Part shown: positions 45,268-63,198 of the stretch, piece after piece
How the letters are laid out: the number at the start of each line of letters is the position of its first letter
Numbering within the stretch: the stretch's first letter is position 1
Assembly: GCA_018262975.1 (NCBI GenBank)
Contig: JADFDG010000001.1
Coordinates: 163,372-227,371, forward strand
Direction of reading: 5' to 3'
Length of the DNA: 64,000 nt
Source of the DNA: Gammaproteobacteria bacterium
GTDB lineage: Bacteria; Pseudomonadota; Gammaproteobacteria; Pseudomonadales; JADFDG01
Translations under genes and position numbers: made by a program
Notes under the pieces: generated by a model
Told to the model about the DNA's origin: nothing
What the model saw: only the letters and a program-made list of their open reading frames with translations
The model's database searches: none

Positions 45268-46078
45268 CCGCGCTCCGCGCCTGCTGATCGCCGCGACGCT
45301 GGCCGCGGCGTTGGCGGCCTGCAGCAGTGCGCCGAAGCAACAGGGTGGCGACACCGCCGGCGTCGACAACGTGAACGTGATCAAGCCCGTGCGCGCCCAG
45401 GCCGCCGCGCCCGCCGCGGTTGCCAGCGACACCGCCCACGTGACCACCGTGACCGCCAGTCCGCAGGCGCAGGCCGCCGCGCAGCAGGCGGCACCCGAGT
45501 ACTTCGCGGCCATGCAGCTGTTGCAGGCCGGCAAGCTCGACGAGGCACAGAAAGCGTTCGCTGCGCTGGCGGTGAAATTCCCGAGCCTGTCCGGCCCGGT
45601 GGTCAACCAGGCGCTGATCGCGCTGCGCAACGAGCGCTGGGACGACGCGCTGGCACTGGCCGACCGCGCGCTCAAGGTCAATGCGCGCAACCCGTTCGCC
45701 TGGAACATGCGCGGCATGGCACTGCGCGAGCAAGGCAAGTTCGCCGACGCCCGCAAGTCCTATGAGAGCGCGCTGGCCATCGACCCCAATTACGCCAAGG
45801 CACACTTCAACCTCGGCGTGCTGGCCGACCTGTACCTGCAGGACCTGCCGCTGGCACTGGCGCACTACGAGAAGTACCAGTCGCTGCAGCGCAAGCCCGA
45901 CCAGGCCGTAGGCAACTGGATTGCCGACCTGCGCAACCGCCTGGGGCTGCCCGCCCCGGCAGCTCCCGCAGCTCCGGCAGCACCTGCACCGGCAGCAGCG
46001 CCGGCCGGCGGCGAATCCGCGCCGGCGGCGGGCGACCCCGAAACCGGCACCGATACCATCCCGGCCCAGGCAGGGTGA
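45248..46078 (+). CDS. TPR lipoprotein (276 aa) with Pro/Ala-rich C-terminus
   Basis: Lipobox LAAC, 3-4 TPRs (NPFAWNMRGMALREQGKFADARKSYESALAIDPNY...) and a PAPAAPAAPAAPAP tail. The start overlaps the upstream gene by 20 nt. Confidence 0.8.
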   Translation: MSMSFTDRAPRLLIAATLAAALAACSSAPKQQGGDTAGVDNVNVIKPVRAQAAAPAAVASDTAHVTTVTASPQAQAAAQQAAPEYFAAMQLLQAGKLDEAQKAFAALAVKFPSLSGPVVNQALIALRNERWDDALALADRALKVNARNPFAWNMRGMALREQGKFADARKSYESALAIDPNYAKAHFNLGVLADLYLQDLPLALAHYEKYQSLQRKPDQAVGNWIADLRNRLGLPAPAAPAAPAAPAPAAAPAGGESAPAAGDPETGTDTIPAQAG

Positions 46079-46482: not shown

Positions 46483-47160
46483 ATGGCAACTGCAGCCGAC
46501 CCCGGTTTCATGATGAGCAGCGTCCGCTTCTTCCAGGATGGCGGCCCCTGGATGTGGCCCATCCTCGTGGTATTCCTGCTCGGCATTGCCCTGGTCGTCG
46601 AACGTTTCATTTACCTGCAGATGGTGACCGGCAAGAACAGCCGCGTGTGGGGTGAGATCTACCCGCTGCTTGCCAAGGGCCAGTTCAAGCAGGTCATGGA
46701 AATTGCCAAGGGCAACGACACCTTCATTTCCGGCATCATCGGTGCCGGCCTGACCCGCGCCACCATTACCCGCCGCCACGAGGATATCGGCCTGGCGATG
46801 GAGGAGTCGCTGATGGAGGTCATGCCGCGACTCGAGCAGCGCACCCCTTACATCGCCACGCTGGCCAACATCGCCACCCTGCTTGGCCTGCTCGGCACCA
46901 TCATGGGCCTGATCGATGCGTTTACCGCCATCGCCAGTGCCGACCCGGCACAGAAAGCAGCCATCCTGTCGTCGTCGATTTCGGTCGCGATGAACACCAC
47001 GGCGTTCGGCCTGATTGCCGCCATCCCGCTGATGCTGGCCTTCACCTACCTGCAGTCGAAGACGGCGAAAGTCGTCGAGAGCATGGAGATGGCCTCCGTC
47101 AAACTGCTGAACATCTACCGCCAGCTGTCCGCTGCCTCCGAGAAGAACCAGGGTGACTGA
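46483..47160 (+). CDS. MotA/TolQ/ExbB-family proton channel
   Basis: Three TM segments and the conserved LLGLLGTIMGLI...TTAFGLIAAIPLMLAFTYL core. AGGAG lies 6 nt upstream of the ATG. Confidence 0.9.
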   Translation: MATAADPGFMMSSVRFFQDGGPWMWPILVVFLLGIALVVERFIYLQMVTGKNSRVWGEIYPLLAKGQFKQVMEIAKGNDTFISGIIGAGLTRATITRRHEDIGLAMEESLMEVMPRLEQRTPYIATLANIATLLGLLGTIMGLIDAFTAIASADPAQKAAILSSSISVAMNTTAFGLIAAIPLMLAFTYLQSKTAKVVESMEMASVKLLNIYRQLSAASEKNQGD

Positions 47161-47219
47161 CCGGCGGGCCTGCCCAGGCTCGCCTTTCTACAGTGCCCGG
47201 ATGATCCGGAGGACCGAAC

Positions 47220-47762
47220 ATGAGTTCACGCAAGAAACCGCGTGTAACCGACGTCGAGCTGAACATCACGACCTTCATGAACCTGATGGTCGTCCTGATT
47301 CCGTTCCTGCTGCTCGACGCGGTATTCACGCAGATGTCGATATTGCAGCTGACGCTGCCCTCTTCGGCCGAGGCACCGCCTTCGCCGGAGGAGGACCGCA
47401 AGCCGTTCTCGCTGGAAGTGCTGATCTACAAGAACCGCTATGAGCTGGTGGACCGCAAGTCCGAATCCGTGCTCTCGGTGATTCCCGTTGCCGCCGACGG
47501 CAAGCACGATACCGCCAAGCTTCACGAAACGCTGGTGCGCCTGAAGGGCCGCGCCGACGAGTTCGGTGAGCCGGTACGCGACATTGCCATCCTCTGCGAG
47601 AAGGACACGCCCTACGAGATCCTCATCATGACGATGGATACCGTGCGCGTGACCGATACCATGGTGAACGGCACGTCGATCAAGAAGGAGCTGTTCCCGG
47701 ACATCTCCATCGGCACGGCACCGGCCGACCAGTCGGGTGTGGCACCGGGAGGTGCGGCATGA
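47220..47762 (+). CDS. ExbD/TolR-family protein 1 (Asn at the conserved TM Asp position)
   Basis: Single N-terminal TM (ELNITTFMNLMVVLIPFLLL) and an ExbD-like periplasmic domain. GGAGG RBS. Confidence 0.85.
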   Translation: MSSRKKPRVTDVELNITTFMNLMVVLIPFLLLDAVFTQMSILQLTLPSSAEAPPSPEEDRKPFSLEVLIYKNRYELVDRKSESVLSVIPVAADGKHDTAKLHETLVRLKGRADEFGEPVRDIAILCEKDTPYEILIMTMDTVRVTDTMVNGTSIKKELFPDISIGTAPADQSGVAPGGAA

Positions 47763-48289
47763 GCCTGCAGAAGCCTACTGCCAAGCAGCGGCGCATGCAG
47801 CGCCGCGCCAAGCACCTGGCACCGACGACGTTGAGCCTGACGTCCCTGATGGACATCTTCACGATCCTGCTGTTCTTCCTGCTGGTGAGCGTTTCGACGT
47901 CGCAGAAAATGCCCGACGAGCGCTACATCCTGCTGCCGAAATCCAGCGCCGAGGAGTTGCCCAAGGAGACGCTCACGGTCGAGGTCAGCGGCAACACGAT
48001 CATCGTGCAGGGCCAGCTGATTGCCGAAACCACGCAGGTCGCCGCCCAGGAAGGCGTATTGATCGCCAAGCTCAAGGAAGAACTGGACTACCAGGCCGCC
48101 AAGTCGGCAGCGCCGCTCAATGAGGCCGGCGTTCCGGAGCGGGAAGTCACGATCCTCATGGACAGCAAGGTTCCCTATGCCGTCCTCGACAAGATCATGA
48201 AGACCTGCATGGTGACCGAGTACAGCAAGATCTCGTTCGCGGTGATGCAGGACAAGAAGAAGCCGGCCACCGGCGGGGAGGGCTCCTGA
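47759..48289 (+). CDS. ExbD/TolR-family protein 2 (conserved TM Asp present)
   Basis: TM segment LSLTSLMDIFTILLFFLLV with Asp32. ATGA overlap with the upstream gene; GGGAGG RBS. Confidence 0.85.
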   Translation: MSLQKPTAKQRRMQRRAKHLAPTTLSLTSLMDIFTILLFFLLVSVSTSQKMPDERYILLPKSSAEELPKETLTVEVSGNTIIVQGQLIAETTQVAAQEGVLIAKLKEELDYQAAKSAAPLNEAGVPEREVTILMDSKVPYAVLDKIMKTCMVTEYSKISFAVMQDKKKPATGGEGS

Positions 48290-49254
48290 TGAGCAGCCCA
48301 CGTCCCGCCATGCCCTCGCGCGGCATTGCCTTTGTTTCCGGCTACCTGCCCTGGGATACGGTCGGTTCCGAGGAAAAACGTGCGCGCTGGCTCCTGTTGG
48401 CCGCCCTGTTGCTCGCGTTCGTGCTGCTCGTGGTGCTGCAGAGCATTACCCTGCCGCCGGTCGACCGCGCGCAGGCCGAGAAGATGCCCGAACGGCTCGC
48501 CAAGCTGGTGATGGAGAAGAAGAAGGAACCGCCGCCGCCGCCGCCCAAGGAAGAAGTGGTGAAGGAAGAGGAAAAGCCCAAGGAAGAGAAGCCGAAGGAG
48601 GAAAAGCCGGTCGAGGAGAAGGTGCAGAAGGCCCGTGAAAAGGCCAGCAAGGCACTGGCCGAGGCCAAGGAAGAACTCGCGGCCATGCAGGACCTCGCCG
48701 CGGCATTCGACTTCGGTGCAGACCAGCCGCTGTCCAAGGCCGGCGCAGCCAGTCCCTCGGAAGGCGCGCTGTCGCGCGACCTGATCACCAGCCGCACCGG
48801 CAAGGGTTCGGGTGGCGTGAACATCGGCACCGCGTCCAGCGGTGGCGGTGGCGCCGGCGTGGCCGGTGGCGGCAAGCTCGGCGGTGCGCAGGTTGCCAAG
48901 GTGGATTCCAACATCACCGAGGGCGGCATCGGCGCGACGCGCAAGAGCGCCAGCGGCAAGCTGGAGCGTACCGAGGAAGAGATCCGCCGCGTGATGGACC
49001 GCAACAACGGTGCCTTGCAGGCGATCTACCAGCGTGCGCTGCGCAGCAACCCGACGCTCAAGGGCGCCATCGTCCTGCGCCTGGTGATCGCGCCGGACGG
49101 CTCGGTGACCTCGGCTGACCTGGTTTCCAGCGAACTGGGCGACGCGGAGACCGAGAAGAAGCTGCTCACCCGCATCAAGGCCATCAACTTCGGCGCCATC
49201 GAGGGCGTGGCCGTGTGGGATGACAAGTACACGCTCAACTTCTTCCCGAGCTGA
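48289..49254 (+). CDS. TonB-like energy transducer with AgmX/PglI-type C-terminal domain (321 aa)
   Basis: N-terminal TM (WLLLAALLLAFVLLVVL), a Pro/Glu/Lys-rich linker (KKKEPPPPPPKEEVVKEEEKPKEEKPKEEKPVEEK), a Gly-rich region, and a TonB_C-like C-terminus (ALRSNPTLKGAIVLRLVIAPDGSV...). TGATG overlap with the upstream gene. Confidence 0.82.
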   Translation: MSSPRPAMPSRGIAFVSGYLPWDTVGSEEKRARWLLLAALLLAFVLLVVLQSITLPPVDRAQAEKMPERLAKLVMEKKKEPPPPPPKEEVVKEEEKPKEEKPKEEKPVEEKVQKAREKASKALAEAKEELAAMQDLAAAFDFGADQPLSKAGAASPSEGALSRDLITSRTGKGSGGVNIGTASSGGGGAGVAGGGKLGGAQVAKVDSNITEGGIGATRKSASGKLERTEEEIRRVMDRNNGALQAIYQRALRSNPTLKGAIVLRLVIAPDGSVTSADLVSSELGDAETEKKLLTRIKAINFGAIEGVAVWDDKYTLNFFPS

Positions 49255-49876: not shown

Positions 49877-50431
49877 TCAGCCGGGCGGCGGCAGGAAGCG
49901 CCCGGCCGGCAATGGCCAGGGCTGGCCATAATGCGCGGCCAGCCGCGCGCCCAGTTGCGCCGCGCGCGGCGGCAGCTGCCCGTCGACGCAGCGCAGCACC
50001 TCGGCATGCACCGCACGCCACAGCGAGCCTTCATCGAGCGGGTCCTCGCAATCGAGGTTATCCATGCTGACGCGAAAGGACTTGCCGCACGCCGCGGTGA
50101 GCACCCATTCCACCGCCTGGGGCCTCGCTTCCACGCGCTCGAACTCCGCTTGCCGGGCGCCACTGCGGCCATCGGGGTCGTACCAGTAACCGTAGTCGAC
50201 CTGCCGGCGCCGTTCGCTGCCGGCCACGCACCAGTGAGCGATCTCGTGCAGCGCACTCTGGAAATAGTCGTGGCGGAACACGATCTCGTTCCAGCCGTGC
50301 TCGTCGGCGGCCGGGACGTAGAGGGGCTCTTCGCCGCCAGCGACCAGCCGCACGCGATGCGATTGCGCAAACGTGGCGGCAAAGATCGCCGCCAGCTCAT
50401 CGGCATCGAAGCGGTCAGCACCCATCGACAT
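49877..50431 (-). CDS. epmC: Elongation factor P hydroxylase
   Basis: Strong resemblance to E. coli YfcM/EpmC as I recall it (HEIAHWCVAG, DYGYWYDPDGR, PQAVEW, MDNLD). ATG at 50431. Confidence 0.85.
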   Translation of the reverse strand: MSMGADRFDADELAAIFAATFAQSHRVRLVAGGEEPLYVPAADEHGWNEIVFRHDYFQSALHEIAHWCVAGSERRRQVDYGYWYDPDGRSGARQAEFERVEARPQAVEWVLTAACGKSFRVSMDNLDCEDPLDEGSLWRAVHAEVLRCVDGQLPPRAAQLGARLAAHYGQPWPLPAGRFLPPPG

Positions 50432-50570
50432 CACCCTGTAGCGGGGGCGCCATGCGCCCACCCGTGTTCCTGTATGATCATCCGCCGCCGTGGTCCGCCG
50501 CCCCGCCGCTGGCAACCGCCAGTCCCGGGGCCGGGATCACCCGAGCCGGCAACGTGGTGCGCACCCTACC

Positions 50571-52013
50571 TTGAGCCTCCCCTCGCCTCAATCCCCGTCC
50601 GCCACCATCCCGCCACCACGCGGTGAACTGCGCGCGTTGCTGGCGCTGGTACTGCCGATCCTCGGCGGCCAGGTGGCGCAGACCGCCAACGGTTTCGTCG
50701 ATACCGTGATGGCCGGCCAGGTCAGCCCGCTGGACCTCGCTGCCGTCGCCGTCGGGGCCAGCATCTGGGTGCCGGTGTTCCTGTTCATGGTCGGCGTGAT
50801 CATCGCCGCCACGCCCATCCTCTCCCAGCACCTCGGCGCCGGCCGCCACCACCACGTGGTGCCTACCGCCTGGCAGGCGCTGTGGCTGGCGCTGGGCGTG
50901 GGCATCGCCGGCCTGCTGGTGACGCGCAATGCGGGCGTGCTGTTCAGCGCGCTGGAGGTGCCGGTGCATTTGCGCCAGCTGACCGGGCGCTACCTGGACG
51001 GCCTGTCCTGGGGCCTGCCCGGCGTCGCGCTGTTCATCGGACTGCGCAGCTACACCGAGTCGCTGTCGCACACCACGCCCGTGCTGGTGATCAGTTTCAT
51101 CGGCCTGTTCGCCAACATCCCGCTCAATTACCTGTTCATCCACGGCGCGACGCTGCCGGCCGGCCTGACGATCCCGGCCATGGGCGGTGCCGGGTGCGGC
51201 GTCGCTACCGCCATCGTGATGTGGCTGATGGCCGGCCTGATGTGGCTTTACGTGCGCAACGCCAGCCACTATCGACGACGTGCACCGGCCGGCACGCGCA
51301 TCGACGGCGGCCCGCACGCCCCGGACGTCCGCGCACTGGCGGCGATGCTCGCCCTGGGCCTGCCGATCGGCCTGGCCATTTTCTTCGAGGTGAGCATCTT
51401 CTCGATCATCGCCGTGTTGCTGGCGACCATGGGTGAACGGGTGGTGGCTGGCCACCAGATCGCCCTGAATTTCGCTTCCCTGACCTTCATGTTGCCGCTG
51501 TCGGTGGCGCTGGGACTCACCGTGCGTACCGGGCTGGCCGCCGGCGCGGGTGACCTGGCCGCGGTGCGCCGCGCGGTACGCACCGGCATGATGCTGTCGA
51601 CGGTGCTGGCCCTGTTCAACCTGTGCGTGTTGCTGCTCGGACGCGAGGCCATCCCCGCGCTGTACACCGATGACCCGGGCGTACGTGCACTGGCGGGTGC
51701 ACTGATCGTCTATGCAGCGATTTTCCAGTTGCCCGACGCGCTGCAGGTGACCGCCAGCGGAGCGCTGCGCGGCTTCCGCGACACGCGCAGCCCGATGTGG
51801 ATCACCCTGCTGGCGTACTGGGGCATCGGCTTGCCGGTGGGATGGGCGCTCGGCTTTGGCACGCTGCTCGGCGTGCCGGTCACCGAACCACTGGGACCGC
51901 AGGGTTTCTGGGTGGGCCTGATCGTGGGCCTGGTGTGCGCCGCGGTGCTGCTCAACCTGCGGCTGGCCGGCTACCTCTCGGGGCGACGGACCTGGCAACG
52001 CGGCAGTGACTGA
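50571..52013 (+). CDS. norM: MATE-family multidrug efflux transporter (NorM-like)
   Basis: 12-TM MatE pattern (LPILGGQVAQTANGFVDTVMAG...ALRGFRDTRSP). The start is uncertain because there is no in-frame ATG near the N-terminus. I chose TTG 50571; the track uses 50490. Confidence 0.8.
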   Translation: MSLPSPQSPSATIPPPRGELRALLALVLPILGGQVAQTANGFVDTVMAGQVSPLDLAAVAVGASIWVPVFLFMVGVIIAATPILSQHLGAGRHHHVVPTAWQALWLALGVGIAGLLVTRNAGVLFSALEVPVHLRQLTGRYLDGLSWGLPGVALFIGLRSYTESLSHTTPVLVISFIGLFANIPLNYLFIHGATLPAGLTIPAMGGAGCGVATAIVMWLMAGLMWLYVRNASHYRRRAPAGTRIDGGPHAPDVRALAAMLALGLPIGLAIFFEVSIFSIIAVLLATMGERVVAGHQIALNFASLTFMLPLSVALGLTVRTGLAAGAGDLAAVRRAVRTGMMLSTVLALFNLCVLLLGREAIPALYTDDPGVRALAGALIVYAAIFQLPDALQVTASGALRGFRDTRSPMWITLLAYWGIGLPVGWALGFGTLLGVPVTEPLGPQGFWVGLIVGLVCAAVLLNLRLAGYLSGRRTWQRGSD

Positions 52014-52057
52014 CGGCAAGAGCCCGCCCGCGACTCCCCTGCTATGCTGGAGCGGCC

Positions 52058-53989
52058 ATGTCGTCTGAAGGGACGCAAGCCATGCGCAGCACGTCGACAC
52101 GTACCACCGGCGCCAATGTCCGTGCCCTGATGGAATTCCTGCAGGCCTGGGCGCCGTTCAGCCAGATGGAAACGGCGCACCTCGCCGCGCTGGTGGAATG
52201 CAGCGAACTGCATTACTTCGCCGACGGCGAGGTGGTCTTGCGCCCGGAAGACGGCCCGGCGCGACGGTTCTGGGTTGTCCGCCAGGGCCGGATACGCGGT
52301 GAACGCAGCGGCAGTGACGGGCGCGCGGAAACCACCTTCGAGATCGCCCGTGGCGAATGCTTCCCGCTGGCGGCGCTGCTGGGCGAGCGCCCCACCCGCA
52401 CCCTGCACCGCGCCGTCGGTGACACCTTCTGCCTGAGCATCGACCGCGCCGATTTCGCTCGCCTGATGACCATGAGCGAGCCGTTCCGGGACTACTGCCT
52501 GCGCGGCGTCAGCAGCCTGCTCGACGAGGTCAACCGCGGCATCCGTCGCCAGGCCCAGCAGGCCGTGGTGGATGACGCCAGCCTCGACCAGCCGCTGACG
52601 CGCTACGCGCAGCGCCGGCCGGTGACCTGCGCACCGGATACGCCGCTGCGCGCTGCCGTGCAGCACATGCACGAAGCCAATGTCGGCTCCATCGTGGTCA
52701 CCGACGAACAGCACAAGCCGCTGGGCATCTTCACGCTGCGCGACCTGCGCGCACAGGTTGCCGCCGCGGTCGCGATGGATGCGCCCATCGCCTCGGTGAT
52801 GAGCCATGACCCGGTCTGCCTGCCGCCGGACGCTACTACCTTCGACGCCTCGCTGCAGATGGCCGCCCGCCACTTCGCACACGTTTGCCTGGTGGATGCC
52901 GGCGGTGCGCTGGCCGGCGTGGTGTCGGAGCGCGACCTCTTCTCGTTGCAGAAAGTCAGCCTCGTGCGCCTCACGCGCACGCTGGGCACCGCACCCGACC
53001 TCGCCACCCTTGCCAGCCTGCGCGAGGACATCCGCCAGCTGGTTGATGCCATGCTGGCGCGAGGCGCCGCGGCCCGCCAGGTGCTGCGCGTGATCACCAC
53101 CCTCAACGACGTCACCGTGAGACGCATCATCGAGCTGCAACGGGCGAAGCAGGATCCCGGCATACGCTTCGCGTGGCTGAGCTTCGGCAGCGAGGCCCGC
53201 CAGGAACAGACCCTGCACACCGACCAGGACAACGCCATCCTTTTCGACCCGCCCGCGGGCATGGGCAACGACGAGGCGCGCCGGCGCCTGCTGCCCTTCG
53301 CGCAGGCAGTCAATGCCGACATGGCGCAGTGCGGATTCGCGCTGTGCAAGGGCAACATCATGGCCGGCAACCCGGAACTGTGCCTGTCGGTGGAAGAATG
53401 GGAAGCGTGGTACCAGCGCTTCATCGAGAGCTGGACGCCGAAGAACCTGATGTATTCGGCAATCTTCCTCGACGGGCGTGCCCTGTGGGGCGATACCGCC
53501 ATGGCCGATGCACTGTTCGCGCGCGTGCGCACGCGCATACGTGCCCACAGCCTGTTCCAGCGCATGATGGCCGGCGCGGCGCTGGAATCGCGGCCACCGC
53601 TGAATTTCTTCCAGGGTTTCGTGTACGCCAAGGGCGGCGAGAAACACACCATCGACCTGAAAGTTCAGGGACTCACGCCATTCGTCGATGTCGCCCGCGT
53701 ATTGTGCTACGCCGAAAACCTGCCGGCGGTGAACACCTTCGAGCGCCTGGAGGCGCTGCGTGATGCGGGACGCCTCGATGCCAACGACGTGAATGCGTGG
53801 CTGGAGGCCTACGGGCTGCTGCACCTGTTGCGCATGCGCCACCACCAGGAGCGCATGGCGAGCGGCCAGCCGCTGGACAACCGGCTGAACCCCGACACCC
53901 TCAACCCGCTGGATGCACGCATCCTGCGCGAATCCTTCCGCCAGGCGCAGCGCCTGCAGCAGTCGCTGGCGCTGGCCTACCAGTTGTGA
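52058..53989 (+). CDS. cNMP-binding + tandem CBS + DUF294 (GlnD-like) nucleotidyltransferase protein
   Basis: N-terminal cyclic-nucleotide-binding fold and a CBS pair (VTCAPDTPLRAAVQHM...IVVTDEQHKPLGIFT). Pol-beta NTase signature FGSEARQEQTLHTDQDNAI, plus a C-terminal DUF294_C-like helical domain. Confidence 0.82.
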   Translation: MSSEGTQAMRSTSTRTTGANVRALMEFLQAWAPFSQMETAHLAALVECSELHYFADGEVVLRPEDGPARRFWVVRQGRIRGERSGSDGRAETTFEIARGECFPLAALLGERPTRTLHRAVGDTFCLSIDRADFARLMTMSEPFRDYCLRGVSSLLDEVNRGIRRQAQQAVVDDASLDQPLTRYAQRRPVTCAPDTPLRAAVQHMHEANVGSIVVTDEQHKPLGIFTLRDLRAQVAAAVAMDAPIASVMSHDPVCLPPDATTFDASLQMAARHFAHVCLVDAGGALAGVVSERDLFSLQKVSLVRLTRTLGTAPDLATLASLREDIRQLVDAMLARGAAARQVLRVITTLNDVTVRRIIELQRAKQDPGIRFAWLSFGSEARQEQTLHTDQDNAILFDPPAGMGNDEARRRLLPFAQAVNADMAQCGFALCKGNIMAGNPELCLSVEEWEAWYQRFIESWTPKNLMYSAIFLDGRALWGDTAMADALFARVRTRIRAHSLFQRMMAGAALESRPPLNFFQGFVYAKGGEKHTIDLKVQGLTPFVDVARVLCYAENLPAVNTFERLEALRDAGRLDANDVNAWLEAYGLLHLLRMRHHQERMASGQPLDNRLNPDTLNPLDARILRESFRQAQRLQQSLALAYQL

Positions 53990-53996
53990 GGACGCC

Positions 53997-54704
53997 ATGA
54001 GCTGGCTCACCCGCCTGCTGGGAAAAAGCCACGCCGGTGACGCCAGTCTGCAACAGGCATTGGCGGAATTGCCGCCCTGCCCGCCGCCGGCGCAACTGGC
54101 GCTGGCCGACACCCGTTTCGTGGTGGTGGATACCGAGAGCACCGGGCTCGACGTGCAGAAGGACAAGTTGCTGTCGATCGGCGCCGTGGCCATCGAGGGC
54201 GGCAGGTTGCGCGTGGGCGACCAGTTCGAGGCCGTGCTCGCCCACGCCGACGCCGATACCCGGCCCACCGTGCTGCTGCACGGCATCGGCGCGGATGCGG
54301 TGCGCGCGGGACAGGCACCTGCCGAAGCGTTGCTGGCGTTCTACCGCTGGAGCGGACCCTGCGTGTTCATTGCCTTCCACGCCGGCTTCGATCGCGCGCT
54401 CACCGAGCGCTCGCTGCGCGACGTTGGCGGCAGCGTGCCGCAACGCTCGTGGCTGGATCTTGCCGTCGCGCTGCCCGCCCTGTACCCGGCGCGGCGGGAC
54501 AAGCGGCGCAGCCTGGACGACTGGACCTCGGCGTTCGGCCTGTACAACCCGGGACGCCACCAGGCCGCCGCCGATGCCTTCGTCACCGCCGAGCTCGCGC
54601 TGGCGATGCTGGCGGCGGCGCGGCGCAACGGGCTGCACAGCGTGGCCGACCTGCAGCGCGTCATGCAGGATTACCAGCGACTGCAGCAACTGCACCCGCG
54701 CTGA
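53997..54704 (+). CDS. DEDDh 3'-5' exonuclease (DnaQ/epsilon-like)
   Basis: ExoI VVVDTESTGL, ExoII AFHAGFDRA, ExoIII HQAAADA. ATG lies 7 nt after the upstream stop. Confidence 0.85.
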   Translation: MSWLTRLLGKSHAGDASLQQALAELPPCPPPAQLALADTRFVVVDTESTGLDVQKDKLLSIGAVAIEGGRLRVGDQFEAVLAHADADTRPTVLLHGIGADAVRAGQAPAEALLAFYRWSGPCVFIAFHAGFDRALTERSLRDVGGSVPQRSWLDLAVALPALYPARRDKRRSLDDWTSAFGLYNPGRHQAAADAFVTAELALAMLAAARRNGLHSVADLQRVMQDYQRLQQLHPR

Positions 54705-54714
54705 TTGCACCCTG

Positions 54715-54744
54715 AAAAAAAAAAGCGGGCGCCGAAGCGCCCGC
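54715..54744 (-). terminator. Rho-independent terminator of yjcH-actP
   Basis: The plus strand has A10 followed by GCGGGCGC-CGAA-GCGCCCGC. On the minus strand this reads as a hairpin plus a T-run about 20 nt after the actP stop. It also closes the convergent exonuclease gene. Confidence 0.85.
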
Positions 54745-54766
54745 CAAAGACCGGAATCCGTCCGGT

Positions 54767-56482
54767 TCAGTGATCGACCGCCGCCCCGGCACCACGCGGC
54801 ACGCGGATGTGCTCGACCAGGTCCTGCACGTGCTGCGGCGGCGGCGCGGTGAGGTGGCTGACCACCATCGCCACGGCGAAGTTCAGCAGCATGCCGACCA
54901 CGCCGATGCCTTCCGGCGAGATGCCGAGGAACCAGTTGGCCTTCACGTTCTCCGCCATCGGCGCCATGAACACGCCCTTGAAGTAGAGGATGTAGGCGAT
55001 GGTGAAGGTGAGGCCCACCACCATGCCGGAGATCGCCCCCCAGTTGTTCATGCGCTTGTAGAAGATACCCAGCACGATGCACGGGAAGAACGATGCCGCA
55101 GCGAGGCCGAAGGCAAAGGCCACCACCTCCGCCACGAAGCCCGGCGGATAGATGCCGAGGATGCCGGCCACCACCACCGCCACCGCCGCGGCGATGCGCG
55201 CCGCCACCAGTTCCTGCTTGTCGGTGATGTGGGGCATCACCATCTTCTTGAGCAGGTCGTGGGAGATGGCCGCGGAGATCACCAGCAGCAGGCCGGCCGC
55301 GGTGGACAACGCCGCCGCCAGCGCACCGGCAGCCACCAGCGCGATCACCCACGGCGGCAGGTTGGCGATTTCCGGGTTGGCCATCACGATGATGTCCTTG
55401 TCGATCTTCATCTCGTTGCGCTCGTCACCGGCGTAGAACATGCGGCCATCGCCGTTCTTGTCTTCCCACGAGATCAGGCCGGTCTTCTCCCAGTTGGTGA
55501 TCCAGGACGGCGCCTCGGTGTACAGCGTGCCCTGCTGGTCCTTGCCGTTGATGGTGTCGATCATGTTCAGGCGGGCGAACCCGGCGATGGCCGGCGCCGT
55601 GGTGTACACCAGCATGATGAACAGCAACGCCCAGCCGGCCGAGCGGCGGGCATCGCGCACCTTCGGCACGGTGAAGAAACGCACGATCACGTGCGGCAGG
55701 CCGGCGGTACCCACCATCAGTGCCAGTGCAATGCAGAACACGTCGATCATGTCCTTGGTGCCGCTGGTATAGGCGGCAAAGCCCAGTTCCGTGCTCAGCC
55801 CGTCGAGTTTCTGCAGCAGGTGCTGCCCGGAACCATCAGTGAGTTCGGCACCGAAGCCGAACTGCGGGATCACGTGGCCGGTCATCATGATCGACAGGAA
55901 GAACGCCGGCACCATGTAGGCGAACAGCAGTACGCAGTACTGGGCCACCTGGGTATAGGTGATGCCTTTCATGCCGCCAACCACCGCGTAGAAGAACACC
56001 AGCGCCATGCCGATGATCACGCCGGTGGTCACGTCCACCTCGAGGAAGCGCGCGAACACGATCCCGACACCGCGCATCTGTCCGGCCACGTAGGTGAACG
56101 ACACGAAGATGGCACAGATCACCGCCACCAGCCGCGCCAGGTCCGAGTAGTAGCGGTCGCCGACGAAATCGGGCACGGTGAATTTGCCGAACTTGCGCAG
56201 GTACGGCGCCAGCAGCAAGGCCAGCAGCACGTAGCCGCCGGTCCAGCCGAGCAGGTACACCGAGCCGTCATAGCCCATGAAGGAAATGAGGCCGGCCATG
56301 GAAATGAACGACGCGGCGCTCATCCAGTCGGCGGCGGTGGCCATGCCGTTGGTGACCGGGTGCACGCCGCCACCGGCGACGTAGAATTCCTTGGTGGATC
56401 CGACACGGGCCCACCAGGCAATGCCGATGTAGAGGGCGAACGACAGGCCGACGATGAGGTAGGTCCAGGCTTGGATGGACAT
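54767..56482 (-). CDS. actP: Cation/acetate symporter (SSS family)
   Basis: 571 aa with ActP-like N-terminus EFYVAGGGVHPVTNGMATAADWMSAASFISMAG and about 14 TM segments. Confidence 0.9.
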   Translation of the reverse strand: MSIQAWTYLIVGLSFALYIGIAWWARVGSTKEFYVAGGGVHPVTNGMATAADWMSAASFISMAGLISFMGYDGSVYLLGWTGGYVLLALLLAPYLRKFGKFTVPDFVGDRYYSDLARLVAVICAIFVSFTYVAGQMRGVGIVFARFLEVDVTTGVIIGMALVFFYAVVGGMKGITYTQVAQYCVLLFAYMVPAFFLSIMMTGHVIPQFGFGAELTDGSGQHLLQKLDGLSTELGFAAYTSGTKDMIDVFCIALALMVGTAGLPHVIVRFFTVPKVRDARRSAGWALLFIMLVYTTAPAIAGFARLNMIDTINGKDQQGTLYTEAPSWITNWEKTGLISWEDKNGDGRMFYAGDERNEMKIDKDIIVMANPEIANLPPWVIALVAAGALAAALSTAAGLLLVISAAISHDLLKKMVMPHITDKQELVAARIAAAVAVVVAGILGIYPPGFVAEVVAFAFGLAAASFFPCIVLGIFYKRMNNWGAISGMVVGLTFTIAYILYFKGVFMAPMAENVKANWFLGISPEGIGVVGMLLNFAVAMVVSHLTAPPPQHVQDLVEHIRVPRGAGAAVDH

Positions 56483-56493
56483 GATGCGCGCCC

Positions 56494-56760
56494 TCAGTCC
56501 TCGTGGACGTCATGTTCCCGGTCGAGCCGGTTCATGCGCCACGTGTAGTAGAAGATCAGCAGGGTGAAGACGAAGATCGATCCCTGCTGCGCGAACCAGA
56601 ACCCCAGCTTGAAGCCGAAGAACTGGATGTGGTTGAGCGGGCCGGCAAACAGGATGCTGGCGCCGAAGCCGAAAATGGCCCAGATCGCCAGGCAGATGAA
56701 CAGCACGCGCAGGTTCGCGCGCCAGTAGGCCTGCCCGGACGAGTCGTCGCGTTGGCTCAT
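56494..56760 (-). CDS. yjcH: DUF485 inner-membrane protein (YjcH-like)
   Basis: 88 aa with two TM segments, immediately upstream of actP as in the E. coli acs-yjcH-actP operon. ATG at 56760. Confidence 0.82.
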   Translation of the reverse strand: MSQRDDSSGQAYWRANLRVLFICLAIWAIFGFGASILFAGPLNHIQFFGFKLGFWFAQQGSIFVFTLLIFYYTWRMNRLDREHDVHED

Positions 56761-56837
56761 GGTGGTCTCCCTCGGGCGCAGCCGCGCCTTCTTGTTTTGG
56801 CGATCCCACGCTAGCGCAGGGCGGCATGGCCCCGCCC

Positions 56838-56853
56838 TTAGACCTTGGTCGAA
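56838..56853. promoter_or_regulatory. Inverted repeat TTAGACC-TT-GGTCGAA in the yjcH-actP / crbS divergent promoter region (candidate CrbR operator)
   Basis: Near-palindrome. Its reverse complement, CTTCGACCAAGGTCTAAG, matches two sites upstream of acs (63151-63166 and 63182-63198). Confidence 0.45.
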
Positions 56854-56929
56854 GCCACGGCCGGCGGCCGCCGATGGACGGCCGCGCGACGCTGTTCCAT
56901 AGTCGGGATGTCGCCCACCGGGAGCCTCC

Positions 56930-59900
56930 ATGCCAGCCTGGCTGCTGCCACTGACCGCACTGGTCTACATCGCGCTGCTGTTCGCGCTTGCCTTCTGGGG
57001 CGATCGCCAGGTGGGGCGCTTCAGCCAGCGCCAGCGCATGGTGCTGTTCAGCCTGACCATCGCCGTCTACTGCACGTCGTGGACTTTCTACGGTGCGGTG
57101 GGCGCGGCGGTGCAGGACGGCTGGTCGTTCCTGCCCATCTATCTCGGGCCGCTGCTGCTGTTGCTGTTCGGTCACCGCCTGTGGGAGCGACTGGTGCTGG
57201 CCAGCCGCACGCAGGGCATCACCTCCATCGCCGACTTCATCGCCGCTCGCTACGGCAAGGCCCCGCATCTCGCCGCACTGGTGGCGTTGTTCGCGGTCAT
57301 CGGCGTATTGCCATACATCGCCCTGCAACTGAAGGCCGTCTCCCTGAGTGCGCAGGTGATGGCCGACCACGGCATGGCCATGGAGTTGCTGCCCGGTGAC
57401 ACGGCACTGTGGACGGCGCTGCTGCTGGCCCTGCTGGCGATCCTGTTCGGCACCCGCCGGCTCGACGCCAGCGAACACCACCTCGGGCTGATGCTGGCCA
57501 TCGGCCTCGAATCGCTGGTGAAACTGGTGGCGCTGGTGGCCGTGGCACTGTTCGCGCTCGACGCACTTCCGCTGGACACGCTCTGGCAGGACGAACGCGT
57601 GCGCCACCTGGCGGCACCGGGCGACCTGCCACCGGGCTTCCTCGCGCAGACCCTGCTGGCCTTCGCCGCGTTGTTCTGCCTGCCTCGCCAGTTCCACGTC
57701 GGCGTGGTCGAATGCGACGACGTGCGCCACGTGCAGGGCGCCCGCTGGCTGTTCGGTGGCTACCTGGTGCTGGTCACCCTCGCCGTTCTGCCGATTGCCG
57801 CCGTTGCGCTCACCGATCCGCGGCTGGCGGGCCTCAACCCGGATATCGCCGTACTGGCCCTGCCACTGGCGGCCGGCCAGGATGGCCTGGCGCTGCTGGC
57901 CTTCCTCGGCGGCTTCTCCGCCGCCACCGGCATGGTGATCGTGGCGACCGTGGCGCTGTCGACCATGGTCAGCAACGACCTGCTCGTTCCCGCCCTGCTG
58001 CGCCTGCAAAGGTTGCGCCTCGGCGAGCGACGGCAGATGAAAGGGATGCTGCTGGCCGCCCGGCGGCTGTCGATCATCGCCATCGTGCTGCTCGGCTATG
58101 GCGGTTACCGGTTGATCGACCAGTACCAGCAACTGGCCAGCATCGGCCTGCTGGCCTTCGCCGCAGTAGCCCAGTTCGCGCCGGCCATCATCGGCGGCCT
58201 GTACTGGCGCGGCGGCAGCCGCGTTGGCGCCACCGCCGGGCTGTGCGCCGGTTTTGCGTTGTGGGTCTACACGCTGCTGCTGCCGGCGCTGCTGCGCAGC
58301 GGCGGCGCCGGCCCCGAGTGGTTGCTGGCCGGCCCGTTCGGCATCGACTGGCTGCGTCCGGAGTCGCTGTTCAAGCTCGCCGGCTGGGATGCGCTGACAC
58401 ACGGAGTGTTCTGGTCGTTGCTGGCCAATACCAGCCTCTACGTGCTGCTGTCGCTGCGCTTCCGGCCTACGCTCGGCGAGCAGATCCAGGCCACGCCTTT
58501 CCTCGACCCGTGGGCAACGCAGGACACCCCGGTGACACCGGCGGAATGGGCGCGACTGCCGGTCAGCGACCTGCTGGCACTGGCCGGGCGCATCGTCGGT
58601 GACGGCCCGGCTACGCAGGCATTTACCGTGTTCGCGCAGCAGCGCGGGGAAGCGCTCGATACCCGTCGCGTCGCGGATGCCTCCTGGTGGCAACTCACCG
58701 AGCGCCTGCTCGCCGGCGCCATCGGCGCCCAGTCGGCACGCGCGATGATCACCACCACGCTGCGCGGCAGCGGCATGGAAATCGGCCAGGTCATGGCCTT
58801 GCTCGACCAGACCTCGCAGCGCCAGCGCTTCAACCGCGACCTGCTGGCGACCATGATGGAAAACATCACCCAGGGCATCAGCGTGGTGGATGCCGACCTG
58901 TGCCTGGTCGCCTGGAACCGCCGTTACCTGGAACTGTTCGACTACCCGCCGGGCATGGTCTACGTCGGCTGCCCGGTCAGCGATCTCATCCGCTACAACG
59001 CCCTGCGCGGAGAGTGCGGCCCCGGCGACGTGGACGCGCACGTACGCAAGCGCATCGACCACATGCGTGCCGGCAGCGCGCACGTGTTCGAGCGCGTGCG
59101 CAGCGACGGCCGCGTGATCGAGATGCGCGGCCAGCCGGTCCCCGGCGGCGGTTTCGTCACCACCTTCAGCGACGTCACCCATTTCAAGCGCACCGAACAG
59201 GAACTGGCGGAAGCCAAGGGCGTGCTCGAGCAGCGCGTCGAACAACGCACCACCGAGTTGCGCGCGGCGCTGGCAGCGCAGGAAGAAGCGCGCCGGCACG
59301 CGGTGGAGGCCAACCTGTCGAAGACGCGCTTCATCGCGGCCGCCAGCCACGACCTGCTGCAGCCGTTGAATGCCGCCCGGTTGTTCGTTGCCGCGCTCGA
59401 ACAGCAGCACCCCGACGACAGCACCGGCGAACTGGTGCAACGCCTGGACGGCTCGCTGCGCGGCGCGGAGGAGCTGCTGTCGGCGCTGCTGGAAATCTCC
59501 CGGCTGGACGCCGGCGCGCTCACCCCGACGGTGACCGCGGTACCGCTGGGCGAACTGTTCGACAGCCTGCGCACGCAGTACGCCCCGCTGGCCGAGCAGC
59601 GCGGCCTGGCCTTGCACGTGGTAGCCACCAGCGCCTGGGTCTCCAGCGACCGCCAGTGGCTGCGCCGCATCCTGCAGAACCTGCTGAGCAACGCCCTGCG
59701 CTACACCCGTGAAGGACGCATCACCCTGGGCGTGCGACGCCGTGGCGACCGCGTGCGCATCGAGGTTCGCGATACCGGCCCGGGCATTCCGCCGGGCCGG
59801 CAGTCGCAGATCTTCGAGGAATTCCACCGCGGCGGCGAGGCATCGCCCTGGGGCGAGAAAGGCATGGGCCTTGGCCTCGCCATCGTCGATCGCATGGCGC

Positions 59901-60391
59901 GCCTGCTCGGGCATGCGGTGGACGTGTCCTCGGCCCCTGGCCACGGGGCAGTGTTCTCGCTGACGGTGCCGCGTGCCGGCGCGCAACCGCAACCGACGGC
60001 ACAGAGCCGCGCGGATACGCGCAGCGAGTCACTCAGCGGACTGGCCGTACTGTGCGTGGACAACGAGCCGGACATCCTGGCCGGCATGCAGGCGCTGCTC
60101 TCCCGCTGGGGCTGCCACGTCATTGTCGCCGGCAATGCAGCAGAGGCTGAAACGCAAGCACGCACGCACGCCGTGGACGTGCTGCTGGCGGACTACCACC
60201 TGGGTGGCGAGGAAAATGGCCTGGCCTTGCTGCAGCGACTGGCCGGCGAACGCCCCGCGGCGCTGGTCACCGCCGACCAGTCTGACACCCTGGCCGCCAG
60301 CGTGCGCGAGGCAGGCTTCGTGCTGCTGCGCAAACCGGTTAAACCGGCGGCGCTGCGCGCATTCCTGTCGGCCCAGCGCCGCACGCACTGA
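56930..60391 (+). CDS. crbS: CrbS/CbrA-like hybrid sensor kinase with N-terminal sodium:solute-symporter domain
   Basis: About 500 aa of SSS-type TM domain, a PAS domain (ITQGISVVDADLCLVAWNRRYLELF), the HisKA H-box ASHDLLQPLN, a HATPase_c domain (GLGLAIV), and a C-terminal receiver (DVLLADYHL). Confidence 0.85.
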   Translation: MPAWLLPLTALVYIALLFALAFWGDRQVGRFSQRQRMVLFSLTIAVYCTSWTFYGAVGAAVQDGWSFLPIYLGPLLLLLFGHRLWERLVLASRTQGITSIADFIAARYGKAPHLAALVALFAVIGVLPYIALQLKAVSLSAQVMADHGMAMELLPGDTALWTALLLALLAILFGTRRLDASEHHLGLMLAIGLESLVKLVALVAVALFALDALPLDTLWQDERVRHLAAPGDLPPGFLAQTLLAFAALFCLPRQFHVGVVECDDVRHVQGARWLFGGYLVLVTLAVLPIAAVALTDPRLAGLNPDIAVLALPLAAGQDGLALLAFLGGFSAATGMVIVATVALSTMVSNDLLVPALLRLQRLRLGERRQMKGMLLAARRLSIIAIVLLGYGGYRLIDQYQQLASIGLLAFAAVAQFAPAIIGGLYWRGGSRVGATAGLCAGFALWVYTLLLPALLRSGGAGPEWLLAGPFGIDWLRPESLFKLAGWDALTHGVFWSLLANTSLYVLLSLRFRPTLGEQIQATPFLDPWATQDTPVTPAEWARLPVSDLLALAGRIVGDGPATQAFTVFAQQRGEALDTRRVADASWWQLTERLLAGAIGAQSARAMITTTLRGSGMEIGQVMALLDQTSQRQRFNRDLLATMMENITQGISVVDADLCLVAWNRRYLELFDYPPGMVYVGCPVSDLIRYNALRGECGPGDVDAHVRKRIDHMRAGSAHVFERVRSDGRVIEMRGQPVPGGGFVTTFSDVTHFKRTEQELAEAKGVLEQRVEQRTTELRAALAAQEEARRHAVEANLSKTRFIAAASHDLLQPLNAARLFVAALEQQHPDDSTGELVQRLDGSLRGAEELLSALLEISRLDAGALTPTVTAVPLGELFDSLRTQYAPLAEQRGLALHVVATSAWVSSDRQWLRRILQNLLSNALRYTREGRITLGVRRRGDRVRIEVRDTGPGIPPGRQSQIFEEFHRGGEASPWGEKGMGLGLAIVDRMARLLGHAVDVSSAPGHGAVFSLTVPRAGAQPQPTAQSRADTRSESLSGLAVLCVDNEPDILAGMQALLSRWGCHVIVAGNAAEAETQARTHAVDVLLADYHLGGEENGLALLQRLAGERPAALVTADQSDTLAASVREAGFVLLRKPVKPAALRAFLSAQRRTH

Positions 60392-60412: not shown

Positions 60413-61087
60413 TCAGTCCTCTTCCACCACCGGCAGGCGGGTCGACGGATCGAGTTGCAGGCGCGAGGCCGCCACCACCGCCTGCGTCCGGTTGCTGGCA
60501 CCGAGTTTCTTCAGGATCGCCGTCATGTGCGCCTTCACCGTGGCCTCCGACACGCCGAGCTCCCAGGCAATCTGCTTGTTGAGCAGGCCGTCGGCCAGCA
60601 TCATCAGGACACGGAACTGCTGCGGCGTGAGATCGCGCAAGCGACGCGCGATGTCCGCCTCGTCGGCCGGCAGCCGGTGGCCGGCCGCGCGCGCGTCGGG
60701 TGGCATCCAGGTATCGCCGTCCAGCACCACCTGGATCGCCTCGCCCATCTGCGCAGTGGGCAGCGATTTGGGAATGTAGGCGCTGGCGCCGTGCGCCATC
60801 GCGCGCCGCATCACCTCGGCTTCCTCGTTGCCGGACACCACGATCACTGGTACCTGCGGGTAATGCGCCCGCACGAACACCAGCCCGGAAAAGCCGCTGG
60901 CCCCGGGCATGTGCAGGTCGAGCAGCAACAGGTCTATGTCGCTGTCGCGCTCCAGCGCTGACTGCAGCGCGGCAATGCTGTCCACCTCGGCGATGCGCGC
61001 CGATGGCAACAACGTCGCCGCGGCGCGGTGCAGCGCGTCGCGGAACAGCGGGTGATCATCGGCGATCAGCAGCTTGAGCATCTTCAT
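60413..61087 (-). CDS. crbR: LuxR/NarL-family response regulator (CrbR-like)
   Basis: REC domain (LLIADDHPLF...DLLLLDLHMPG) plus a LuxR HTH (LTPQQFRVLMMLADGLLNKQIAWELGVSEATVKAH). Confidence 0.82.
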   Translation of the reverse strand: MKMLKLLIADDHPLFRDALHRAAATLLPSARIAEVDSIAALQSALERDSDIDLLLLDLHMPGASGFSGLVFVRAHYPQVPVIVVSGNEEAEVMRRAMAHGASAYIPKSLPTAQMGEAIQVVLDGDTWMPPDARAAGHRLPADEADIARRLRDLTPQQFRVLMMLADGLLNKQIAWELGVSEATVKAHMTAILKKLGASNRTQAVVAASRLQLDPSTRLPVVEED

Positions 61088-61144: not shown

Positions 61145-63094
<1,950 letters not shown>

Positions 63095-63150
63095 GGGCTG
63101 TCCTCCTCGGGAATGGCCCCGAGTATCGGCAGCACCGCCGGCAGGCGGTA

Positions 63151-63198
63151 TTAGCCAAAGGTCTAAACACCTGCCGCCGCCTTCGACCAAAGGCCAAT
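63151..63198. promoter_or_regulatory. Two related imperfect inverted repeats upstream of acs / porin (candidate CrbR operators)
   Basis: TTAGCC-AAA-GGTCTAA (63151-63166) and TTCGACC-AAA-GGCCAAT (63182-63198). They lie 57-104 nt upstream of the acs ATG. Confidence 0.45.

Follow-up and report, generated by a model that had tools for sequence, protein, structure and literature searches.

The nearest described relatives of the gene pair analysed here are Pseudomonas operons that encode a four-domain nucleotidyltransferase (NTase) followed by an exonuclease of the RNase_T family. We characterized such a pair, an NTase gene with a DEDDh exonuclease gene directly behind it, in a 64,000 nucleotide long stretch of DNA from a Gammaproteobacteria bacterium (Pseudomonadales, JADFDG01; assembly GCA_018262975.1, contig JADFDG010000001.1, forward strand positions 163,372 to 227,371), which is called the window in the following. 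Among the Pseudomonas proteins, PFLU5625 has been described as a cAMP-binding/CBS/nucleotidyltransferase protein with predicted protein nucleotidylation, and is activated by the CrbS/CrbR system via an ACTU inverted repeat (Sepulveda and Lupas, PMC5715377). The promoter of PP_0354 is bound by ErdR, and acetate induces this gene (Henriquez and Jung, PMC8402216). PP_0354 and PP_0353, the latter belonging to the RNase_T family, form an operon, which in P. aeruginosa adjoins actP/yjcH (PMC9927547). In the same organism PA3232-PA3235 were upregulated approximately 16-fold on propionate (PMC9765439).

Deletion mutants have been described as well. Growth on 20 mM acetate was unaffected by deletion of PP_0354 or PP_0353 (PMC9927547). 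On pyruvate, deletion of the exonuclease gene PP_0353 impaired growth in a similar manner as deletions of actP-I and yjcH, whereas deletion of the NTase gene PP_0354 had little effect (PMC9927547; bioRxiv 10.64898/2026.09.07.749794). Both P. putida deletion strains grew less on propionate, and cyclic-nucleotide (cNMP) and energy sensing with protein modification was suggested for the pair (bioRxiv 10.64898/2026.09.07.749794). Electrophoretic mobility shift, reporter, RNA sequencing and deletion data are already published for the pair (PMC5715377, PMC8402216, PMC9927547, bioRxiv 10.64898/2026.09.07.749794), and its acetate link is not new since the regulon membership is documented. When the literature was searched for "DUF294", the family name of the NTase core, the true mentions found were limited to a survey of HEPN proteins (PMC3710099) and to a footnote reporting that Bacilli possess a DUF294-dnaQ operon; several matches were in reality to DUF2946.

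Judged from sequence, it is well supported that the window pair represents a copy of the operon PFLU5625 (P. fluorescens SBW25) / PP_0354-PP_0353 (P. putida/alloputida KT2440) / PA3233-PA3232 (P. aeruginosa) of the CrbS/CrbR (MxtR/ErdR) short-chain-carboxylate regulon. Sequence identity to the window NTase over residues 20-643 amounts to 52-56% for the Pseudomonas NTases, including those of P. entomophila and P. syringae. As in the PP_0354-PP_0353 system, one operon encodes a four-domain NTase and, behind it, an exonuclease of the RNase_T family. The neighbourhood contains acs, a carboxylate symporter and genes for a CrbS-like kinase and a CrbR-like regulator, and CrbR-type boxes stand in front of acs and of the symporter operon. 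Two properties differ: The window pair lies 44 nt behind a MatE efflux gene and is preceded only by a candidate degenerate box, while Pseudomonas and the closest relatives possess a clear box, and the adjacent transporter is of the VC_2705/DUF4212 type and not ActP/YjcH. The window pair is one more instance of a published module, here in a high-GC organism with gammaproteobacterial sequences as its nearest relatives, and by itself adds little to the literature. Taken as a whole, the evidence speaks for a module of two antagonistic enzymes with a functional connection to the uptake and activation of monocarboxylates.

The NTase-exonuclease pairing is almost obligatory. A genome scan provided 80 loci from Marinobacter, Pseudomonas, Halopseudomonas, Hahella and Oleiphilaceae as well as from a Moraxellaceae metagenome-assembled genome. 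The NTases of these loci are 49-72% identical to the window NTase, with the best match (72%) in the uncultured Moraxellaceae genome. The exonuclease gene was found directly downstream and co-oriented in 78 of the 80 loci, and the remaining two end just after the NTase gene, such that the pairing held in 78 of 78 testable cases. In 37 of these 78 loci both genes share a 4-nt ATGA overlap. For a more distant set, 80 metagenomic loci were recruited with an alignment headed by a relative that is 27% identical to the window NTase. Here a DEDDh gene was located nearby in 62 of the 71 loci with enough flanking sequence and was adjacent in about 57 of them. Among the neighbours in the nine loci lacking the exonuclease no substitute phosphodiesterase recurred, and four of ten scanned open reading frames (ORFs) had no Pfam match; the neighbours included a chaperonin, YcaO, a radical-SAM protein, an alpha/beta-hydrolase and a cytidylate-kinase-like protein. 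A search seeded with the exonuclease gave the same pairing in Betaproteobacteria. The NTase family comprises about 1,518 clusters at 50% identity (E <= 1e-30) with members in Anaerolineae, Thermodesulfobacteriota and Thioalkalivibrionaceae, and the module spans Pseudomonadota, Thermodesulfobacteriota and Chloroflexota.

The surveys also provided the genes that accompany the pair. A symporter with a DUF4212 subunit was present within 10 kb in 46 of the 80 genome loci, and the gene order in Marinobacter was NTase-exo-DUF4212-SSF-CrbS. In the distant set, an SSF, DUF4212 or Acs gene was found in 38 of 80 loci (28 of 44 when only loci with a length of 8 kb or more are counted). A Sulfuricella-like contig carries DUF485-SSF, the NTase-exo pair with a 4-nt overlap and DUF4212-SSF, all in one direction, while in Candidatus Gallionella acididurans the pair is convergent with DUF485-SSF. 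Relatives thus couple the module with a DUF4212-type or a DUF485-type symporter, or with both. Across these locus surveys the pair is most regularly accompanied by two-subunit Na+/monocarboxylate symporters and, next to these, by Acs and CrbS-like kinases. This agrees with the initial annotation, which had placed the pair next to acetate genes in other gammaproteobacteria: synteny of this kind is present elsewhere. On the Sulfuricella-like contig a gene of the pyruvate phosphate dikinase type (PPDK_N, PEP-utilizers) and a gene for a GGDEF protein come after the module (L164:10471-14705), another link to pyruvate and C3 metabolism.

We next describe the two gene products. The NTase was proposed to combine four modules, and Pfam indeed found all of them, i.e. 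a cNMP_binding domain, two CBS stretches, DUF294 and DUF294_C, with all four domain types scoring above the gathering thresholds. The exonuclease of 235 aa begins at ATG 53997, 7 nt behind the NTase stop codon and on the same strand, as had been read initially from the ORF list. The same 643- and 235-aa products were obtained when genes were called independently on another assembly of the sequence (Logan, SRR30482337). The GAGGA Shine-Dalgarno sequence of the exonuclease overlaps the NTase stop codon, and the intergenic gaps that flank the pair are 44 nt long upstream (to MatE) and 62 nt downstream. For the NTase the 643-aa reading frame was confirmed, but its start may be ATG 52082 (M9) instead of ATG 52058. 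The alternative start is preceded by AAGGGA and gives a product of 635 aa, similar in length to its nearest homologues (636-638 aa). Furthermore, a -10-like TATGCT lies just 9 nt before ATG 52058, which suggests that the downstream ATG is the real start.

The catalytic residues of the NTase are intact. The motif quoted in the initial annotation, FGSEARQEQTLHTDQDNAI, corresponds to residues 376-394. In 70 relatives that are 27-50% identical to the window protein, G377, S378, D389 and D391 are conserved to at least 90%, and D472, R381, E383, Q390 and W448 are invariant. The claimed G-S...D-x-D signature therefore holds down to 27% identity, and the possibility that its residues might not be conserved in orthologs was not borne out. 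With D472 as probable third carboxylate, the NTase possesses the pol-beta signature G-[GS]...D-x-D plus third carboxylate that characterizes NTases of the GlnE/GlnD/DrrA type. These enzymes are also resembled in the helical KNTase_C-clan domain that follows the core and in the overall fold (PF10335, Foldseek).

The AlphaFold model of the NTase had a mean predicted local distance difference test (pLDDT) score of 76.8, while the half comprising the NTase core and the C-terminal domain had values mostly between 70 and 95, averaging around 85. The best multi-domain PDB matches obtained with Foldseek were the adenylylation domain of E. coli GlnE (3k7d, E 3e-9), the AMPylation domain of Legionella DrrA (6yx5, E 3e-7) and the deadenylylation domain of GlnE (1v4a, E 6e-7), all of them from enzymes that transfer nucleotidyl groups to or from proteins. 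The top 50 fold matches were free of CCA-adding enzymes, poly(A) polymerases and cGAS/OAS-type enzymes. DUF294_C belongs to the same Pfam clan as GlnD_UR_UTase and NTase_sub_bind, and has been grouped with GlnD/GlnE, the HEPN catalytic residues being reported absent from the DUF294_C group (PMC3710099, Table 1 therein). As far as models can tell, the fold evidence on the target class of the NTase leans towards protein.

For the exonuclease the initial annotation had noted intact ExoI, ExoII and ExoIII motifs. All five DEDDh residues (D45, E47, D132, H188 and D193) are present, and they are invariant in 79 partner exonucleases and 44 database homologues. The model of the protein (pLDDT 91.9) shows a standard DnaQ-type fold. 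Its best fold matches were the exonuclease domains of S. aureus DinG and of PolC as well as epsilon, and Orn was also among the matches. An alignment of homologues revealed that the N-terminus carries a conserved extension, MxWLxRLxG. Partner exonucleases of some metagenomic lineages have PAS domains fused to the N-terminal side of the DEDDh domain and are 700-818 aa long when counted from stop to stop (L107:3748-5934, L128:3531-5984, L137:550-2634, L147:7227-9329, L150:7679-9949; also L112 and L115); one of these proteins has a weak HATPase_c match. The genes of these PAS-DEDDh fusions sit directly upstream or downstream of the NTase gene. Given the fusion of PAS domains to DEDDh, the exonuclease itself would be a sensor-gated output in those lineages.

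The sensor half of the NTase allowed less definite conclusions. The cNMP-fold domain matched the PDB domains of PKG and PKA with E-values of 1e-6 to 1e-5, and a profile match as expected for a canonical cNMP domain was obtained. The contact residues, i.e. the F-G-E Glu and the R-[ST]-A Arg, were not found: F-G-E of the phosphate-binding cassette is replaced by F102-P103-L104, and the PKA/PKG cassette Arg aligns to T113 with R114 one position further on. The cassette Arg is not conserved across the wider NTase family, and AlphaFold modelled the cassette segment (residues 95-115) with a pLDDT below 50. Since the cassette deviates at two contact positions and the segment is modelled at low confidence, the ligand of this domain is uncertain, and the proposed gating by a cyclic nucleotide is not secure. 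The CBS pair found its best structural matches in CBS pairs that bind adenosine monophosphate (AMP) and S-adenosylmethionine, with target-normalised template-modelling scores of 0.8-0.9; AcuB CBS structures were also among the fold matches of the NTase model. The sensor part varies within the family. NTases of about 775-784 aa carry two cNMP_binding domains (L107:6001-8352, L129:5992-8316), and besides the long form of about 640 aa there is a short form of about 480 aa without cNMP domain (e.g. L101:5992-7428, P0147).

We also characterized the promoter regions with respect to CrbR/ErdR (ACTU-type) boxes. The boxes of the symporter operon and of acs share the extended form G[AC]C[AC]AAGGTCTAA, of which the 64 kb contain no further exact match. 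Ahead of the NTase gene a candidate degenerate box was found that overlaps the MatE stop codon and stands 24 nt ahead of the -10-like CTATGCT. A strict sigma-70 promoter scan of 51400-57000 returned no sites, and no match to the 17-mer ACTU consensus was detected before the NTase gene when up to 3 mismatches were allowed. In the closest relatives L001, L163 and L162 the boxes GACCTTGGTC (GACCTTGGTCTAAG), TACCTTGGTC (TACCTTGGTCTAAG) and GACCATGGTC (GACCATGGTCGTAG), respectively, precede a -10-like element, being located 25-26 nt before CTAGAGT or CTAGACT; the candidate box of the window keeps this conserved spacing. Of the 78 testable loci, 40 carry [TG]ACN4GTC in the 260 nt that precede the NTase gene, compared to 9.4% of background windows. 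In nearly all Pseudomonas loci GACTTACGTC was seen at -49 to -110 of the NTase gene, a sequence that forms the core of the ACTU site published for PFLU5625 (PMC5715377). In the window itself KACNNNNGTC is rarer than expected (22 matches versus 55), and only its position is informative. From these patterns a direct control of the pair by CrbR in the window organism appears plausible.

Around the pair, candidate genes of the carboxylate regulon follow on the downstream side. The initial annotation had labelled the convergent genes yjcH-actP. On the window symporter the ActP models reached only 164 bits against a cut-off of 1099 (TIGR02711) and 207 against 750 (NF006903). Because these scores are far below the cut-offs and the small subunit is DUF4212 and not the DUF485 partner, the genes are not ActP/YjcH; the label has to be replaced by a VC_2705-family symporter (TIGR03648) with a DUF4212 subunit. 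Of the terminator that was thought to be shared by both operons the hairpin is indeed present. On the plus strand it has A11 in front and CAAAGACC behind and no T-run. As the T-run exists on the minus strand only, the hairpin is the terminator of the symporter operon. Compared at full length with the kinases of the Marinobacter loci, the CrbS/MxtR-like kinase shows 44-46% identity. Its N-terminal 620 aa (56930-58789) gave no Pfam match even at E <= 1, and thus no SSF/SLC5 match, such that the expected SLC5-like sensor domain is unconfirmed by profile search. The best NCBIfam match of the regulator was ErdR (NF041830) with 249 bits, under the cut-off of 390 bits.

On the upstream side, the EpmC (EF-P hydroxylase) gene (49877-50515, minus strand) is divergent from MatE. 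The longest ORFs of the two overlap by 26 nt, and MatE probably starts further downstream than its longest ORF. Judged from translations alone, 46483-49254 (plus strand) resembles an ExbB/ExbD/ExbD/TonB-type cluster, which is preceded by two large proteins rich in tetratricopeptide (TPR) repeats at 42220-46078. The coordinates of the features are collected in the following table.

Features of the gene pair and its surroundings; positions are those of the window, residues those of the respective protein
Feature	Position	Strand	Basis or remark
MatE efflux gene	50490-52013	+	ends 44 nt before NTase ATG 52058
Candidate degenerate CrbR/ErdR (ACTU-type) box GACTGACGGC	52008..52017	+	one half-site mismatch; suggestive only
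-10-like hexamer TATGCT	52043..52048	+	read from sequence
NTase gene, 643 aa	52058..53989	+	ORF list, Pfam, homologue searches
cNMP_binding-fold domain, residues 52-137	52211..52468	+	PF00027, 46 bits vs cut-off 27.5
Phosphate-binding cassette of cNMP-fold domain, residues 99-119	52352-52414	+	reads GECFPLAALLGERPTRTLHRA
CBS pair, residues ~184-300	52607..52957	+	PF00571, two stretches, 82 bits
DUF294 pol-beta-type NTase core, residues 324-461	53027..53440	+	PF03445, 143 bits
G377-S378...D389-x-D391 motif	53186-53230	+	inside DUF294 core
D472, probable third catalytic carboxylate (role inferred)	53471..53473	+	invariant in 70 relatives and alignment A5
DUF294_C helical domain, residues 499-641	53552..53980	+	PF10335, 146 bits; KNTase_C/HEPN clan (PMC3710099)
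DEDDh (DnaQ-like) 3'-5' exonuclease gene, 235 aa	53997..54704	+	internal ATG of ORF 53913..54704
RNase_T domain in exonuclease, residues 42-200			Pfam, 68 bits
ExoI, D45/E47	54129-54137	+	
ExoII, D132	54390-54392	+	
ExoIII, H188...D193	54558-54575	+	
GC-rich hairpin then T-run, intrinsic terminator of symporter operon	54724..54745	-	sequence
VC_2705-family Na+/solute (monocarboxylate-type) symporter, large subunit	54767..56482	-	TIGR03648, 870 bits
DUF4212 symporter small subunit, 88 aa	56494..56760	-	PF13937, TIGR03647; gene call from the Logan assembly
CrbR/ErdR-type box GACCAAGGTCTAA	56838..56850	-	divergent promoter region of symporter operon and kinase gene; perfect
CrbS/MxtR-like hybrid kinase: PAS_7, HisKA, HATPase_c, REC	56930..60391	+	Pfam
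CrbR/ErdR-like LuxR-family response regulator, REC + GerE	60413..61087	-	Pfam
Acetyl-CoA synthetase (acs)	61145..63100	-	TIGR02188, 1007 bits
CrbR/ErdR-type box GCCAAAGGTCTAA	63154..63166	+	upstream of acs
Second, weaker CrbR/ErdR-type site	63185-63195		upstream of acs

To explain the pair we favour, tentatively and as a possible rather than a probable mechanism, that the gated NTase dampens a protein of uptake or activation by (oligo)nucleotidylylation and that the exonuclease removes this mark. The CBS pair, probably reading adenine nucleotides or energy charge, would set the activity of the GlnE/DrrA-like NTase, which would also be gated by the cNMP-fold domain with its uncertain ligand. 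The active NTase would attach one or a few nucleotides to a protein of monocarboxylate uptake or activation, most likely the SSF symporter with its small subunit, else Acs, whose function would thereby be dampened. The translationally coupled DEDDh exonuclease would hydrolyse the 5'-phosphodiester-linked nucleotide(s), release nucleoside monophosphate (NMP) and restore activity. Together both proteins would tune the uptake and activation of acetate, pyruvate and propionate to the energy status. The protein target, the inhibitory sign of the modification and the role of the exonuclease as eraser are what we infer from several observations: the fold matches are protein AMPylators, DUF294_C shares a clan with the C-terminal domains of GlnD/GlnE, and the P. 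putida pyruvate phenotypes are as one would predict for an inhibitory NTase product that the exonuclease removes. In this respect the writer/eraser idea of the initial annotation fits the published genetics, in which the exonuclease and the NTase deletions differ on pyruvate, and it overlaps with published speculation. Regarding the chemistry, the two-metal site of DEDDh enzymes cleaves X-O-P(5'-NMP) diesters with release of 5'-NMP, and the oligo-AMPylation of HepT by MntA provides a precedent for 3'-5'-linked nucleotide chains on a protein.

A number of observations weigh against this mechanism. We know of no biochemical assay for any DUF294 protein and of no DEDDh enzyme that takes nucleotides off proteins; the known de-AMPylases use other folds. 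In the models the likeness of the NTase to GlnE and DrrA is at the level of the fold only: Searches of the PDB with the NTase and C-terminal domains returned no homologue, either by phmmer or with a profile of 23 sequences (for the profile none with E < 0.1), and Pfam returned no GlnE or GlnD match at E up to 10 but just DUF294, DUF294_C and a weak Polbeta. The exonuclease model, in turn, looks like an ordinary nucleic-acid 3'-5' exonuclease, and by analogy the PAS-fused variants resemble second-messenger phosphodiesterases such as GdpP. The P. putida mutant phenotypes are mild. In the window, pattern scans did not detect a clear CrbR box in front of the pair, i.e. no exact KACNNNNGTC ([TG]ACN4GTC) or GMCNAAGGTCTAA upstream of 52058. 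Finally, a diffusible inhibitory nucleotide would account for the genetics just as well.

Such a nucleotide is the basis of a rival explanation that we consider somewhat unlikely: In response to energy or cNMP signals, the NTase would make a linear or cyclic (oligo)nucleotide messenger that inhibits monocarboxylate uptake or activation, and the exonuclease would degrade it. Second-messenger sensor modules are found on both partners (cNMP and CBS on the NTase and, in some lineages, PAS on the exonuclease as in GdpP), some lineages possess dual-cNMP NTases, and the near-obligatory pairing is like that of a synthase and its hydrolase. DEDDh enzymes such as Orn, itself one of the structural matches of the exonuclease, degrade pGpG. 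However, the best fold matches of the NTase are protein AMPylators and not synthases of the cGAS/DncV/OAS type, PADLOC gave no CD-NTase-like match, and effector or receptor genes show no consistent linkage to the pair. These NTase fold matches bear in the same way on an editing of RNA 3' ends, which we regard as unlikely. Here the NTase would add untemplated nucleotides to transfer, small or messenger RNA and the exonuclease would trim them, adjusting the expression of carboxylate-utilisation genes, akin to the end-turnover cycle of the CCA-adding enzyme and RNase T. While the exonuclease has a DnaQ/RNase T-class fold with all catalytic residues, the pol-beta motif of the NTase is common to tailing enzymes and PP_0353 has been speculated to degrade mRNAs (PMC9927547), the top fold matches GlnE and DrrA come without structures of CCA-adding enzymes, poly(A) polymerases or terminal uridylyltransferases (TUTases), and the helical C-terminal domain is of the GlnE/KNTase type. 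Moreover, neither a conserved RNA gene nor a structured intergenic region goes along with the pair, and the gaps in the window are 44 and 62 nt long.

The tight coupling of the genes could also mean that the NTase nucleotidylates the exonuclease itself to switch it, while the exonuclease alone acts on nucleic acids. The strict adjacency with translational coupling, the stronger phenotype of the exonuclease deletion and the N-terminal MxWLxRLxG as a conceivable docking site would be in line with such a regulator-effector relation. It is nevertheless improbable and purely speculative, as outside the catalytic helices the exonuclease has no invariant Tyr, Ser or Thr except T197, and no natural fusion of NTase and exonuclease was found among 150 family representatives or 160 loci. 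Databases often label homologues of the exonuclease "DNA polymerase III subunit epsilon", and its fold matches epsilon, which could argue for a replicative proofreader DnaQ or a general DNA-repair nuclease placed beside the NTase by chance. The DEDDh residues and the fold are common to the whole superfamily and hence not diagnostic of DnaQ. The protein fails every replicative-DnaQ model that was checked, scoring 30.7 bits against a cut-off of 222.7 (TIGR01406), 39.6 against 196 (PRK05711) and 48.1 against 71.5 (TIGR00573). The identity with replicative DnaQ, which the initial annotation had named as a possible refutation, was rejected on these cut-offs. Together with the pairing in 78 of 78 and 62 of 71 loci and a Pseudomonas counterpart that is ErdR-regulated and deletable, this makes a chance neighbour very improbable. 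An anti-phage defence or toxin-antitoxin module, either CBASS-like with a Cap18-like exonuclease or an MNT/HEPN-like pair, was rejected since PADLOC was negative for the NTase. DUF294_C does belong to the HEPN/KNTase_C clan and the exonuclease matches generic DEDDh models in PADLOC, but the metabolic context is stable across genera and not that of a defence island. With the HEPN catalytic residues reported absent from the DUF294_C group, the probability of a defence function is very low.

The favoured mechanism, (oligo)nucleotidylylation of a protein by the NTase with removal by the exonuclease, can be compared with other known systems. With GlnE, GlnD and DrrA-SidM the window NTase shares the order of a pol-beta core and a helical KNTase_C-clan domain, GlnE and DrrA being the best structural matches of its model. 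The pair would in addition share with these enzymes the writer/eraser logic and a sensor-regulated output. The output of GlnD is regulated by ACT domains, while the sensors of the window NTase are the cNMP-fold and CBS domains, and sequence-level membership in these families is absent. The erasers differ as well: the putative one of the window pair is a separate DEDDh exonuclease, whereas GlnE uses a second NTase domain (phosphorolysis) and GlnD an HD domain. In the MntA-HepT system an NTase with a KNTase_C/HEPN-clan partner domain builds chains on a protein Tyr, which could in principle be trimmed by a 3'-5' exonuclease. MntA, however, is the minimal NTase of a toxin-antitoxin pair, without sensors, dedicated exonuclease or metabolic context. 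A third likeness exists to the modifiers of Acs, i.e. the mycobacterial cAMP-dependent acetyltransferase and Bacillus AcuA/AcuB/AcuC, where cNMP-fold or CBS sensors are combined with a covalent modifier and an opposing eraser in acetate metabolism. The chemistry there is lysine acetylation and deacetylation, in contrast to the NTase and exonuclease of the window pair.

DUF294 (COG2905) proteins were predicted decades ago to be signal-gated nucleotidyltransferases, and to our knowledge none of them has a known substrate. It is conceivable, though we regard it as doubtful, that the exonuclease does not serve as a nuclease of nucleic acids in vivo but acts as the eraser of a new protein (oligo)nucleotidylylation mark or as the hydrolase of a new nucleotide messenger, either being the product of the GlnE-like, CBS- and cNMP-fold-gated NTase, and that the module serves as a general energy-status brake on Na+/monocarboxylate symporters and/or Acs. 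The Pseudomonas pair belongs to those genes over which the acetate/propionate/pyruvate regulator MxtR/ErdR exerts the strongest control. Elucidating the chemistry of the pair could uncover a mechanism that governs the uptake of short-chain carboxylates, be it a new post-translational switch or a new signalling nucleotide, a process that matters for gut and lung pathogens as well as for biotechnology strains.

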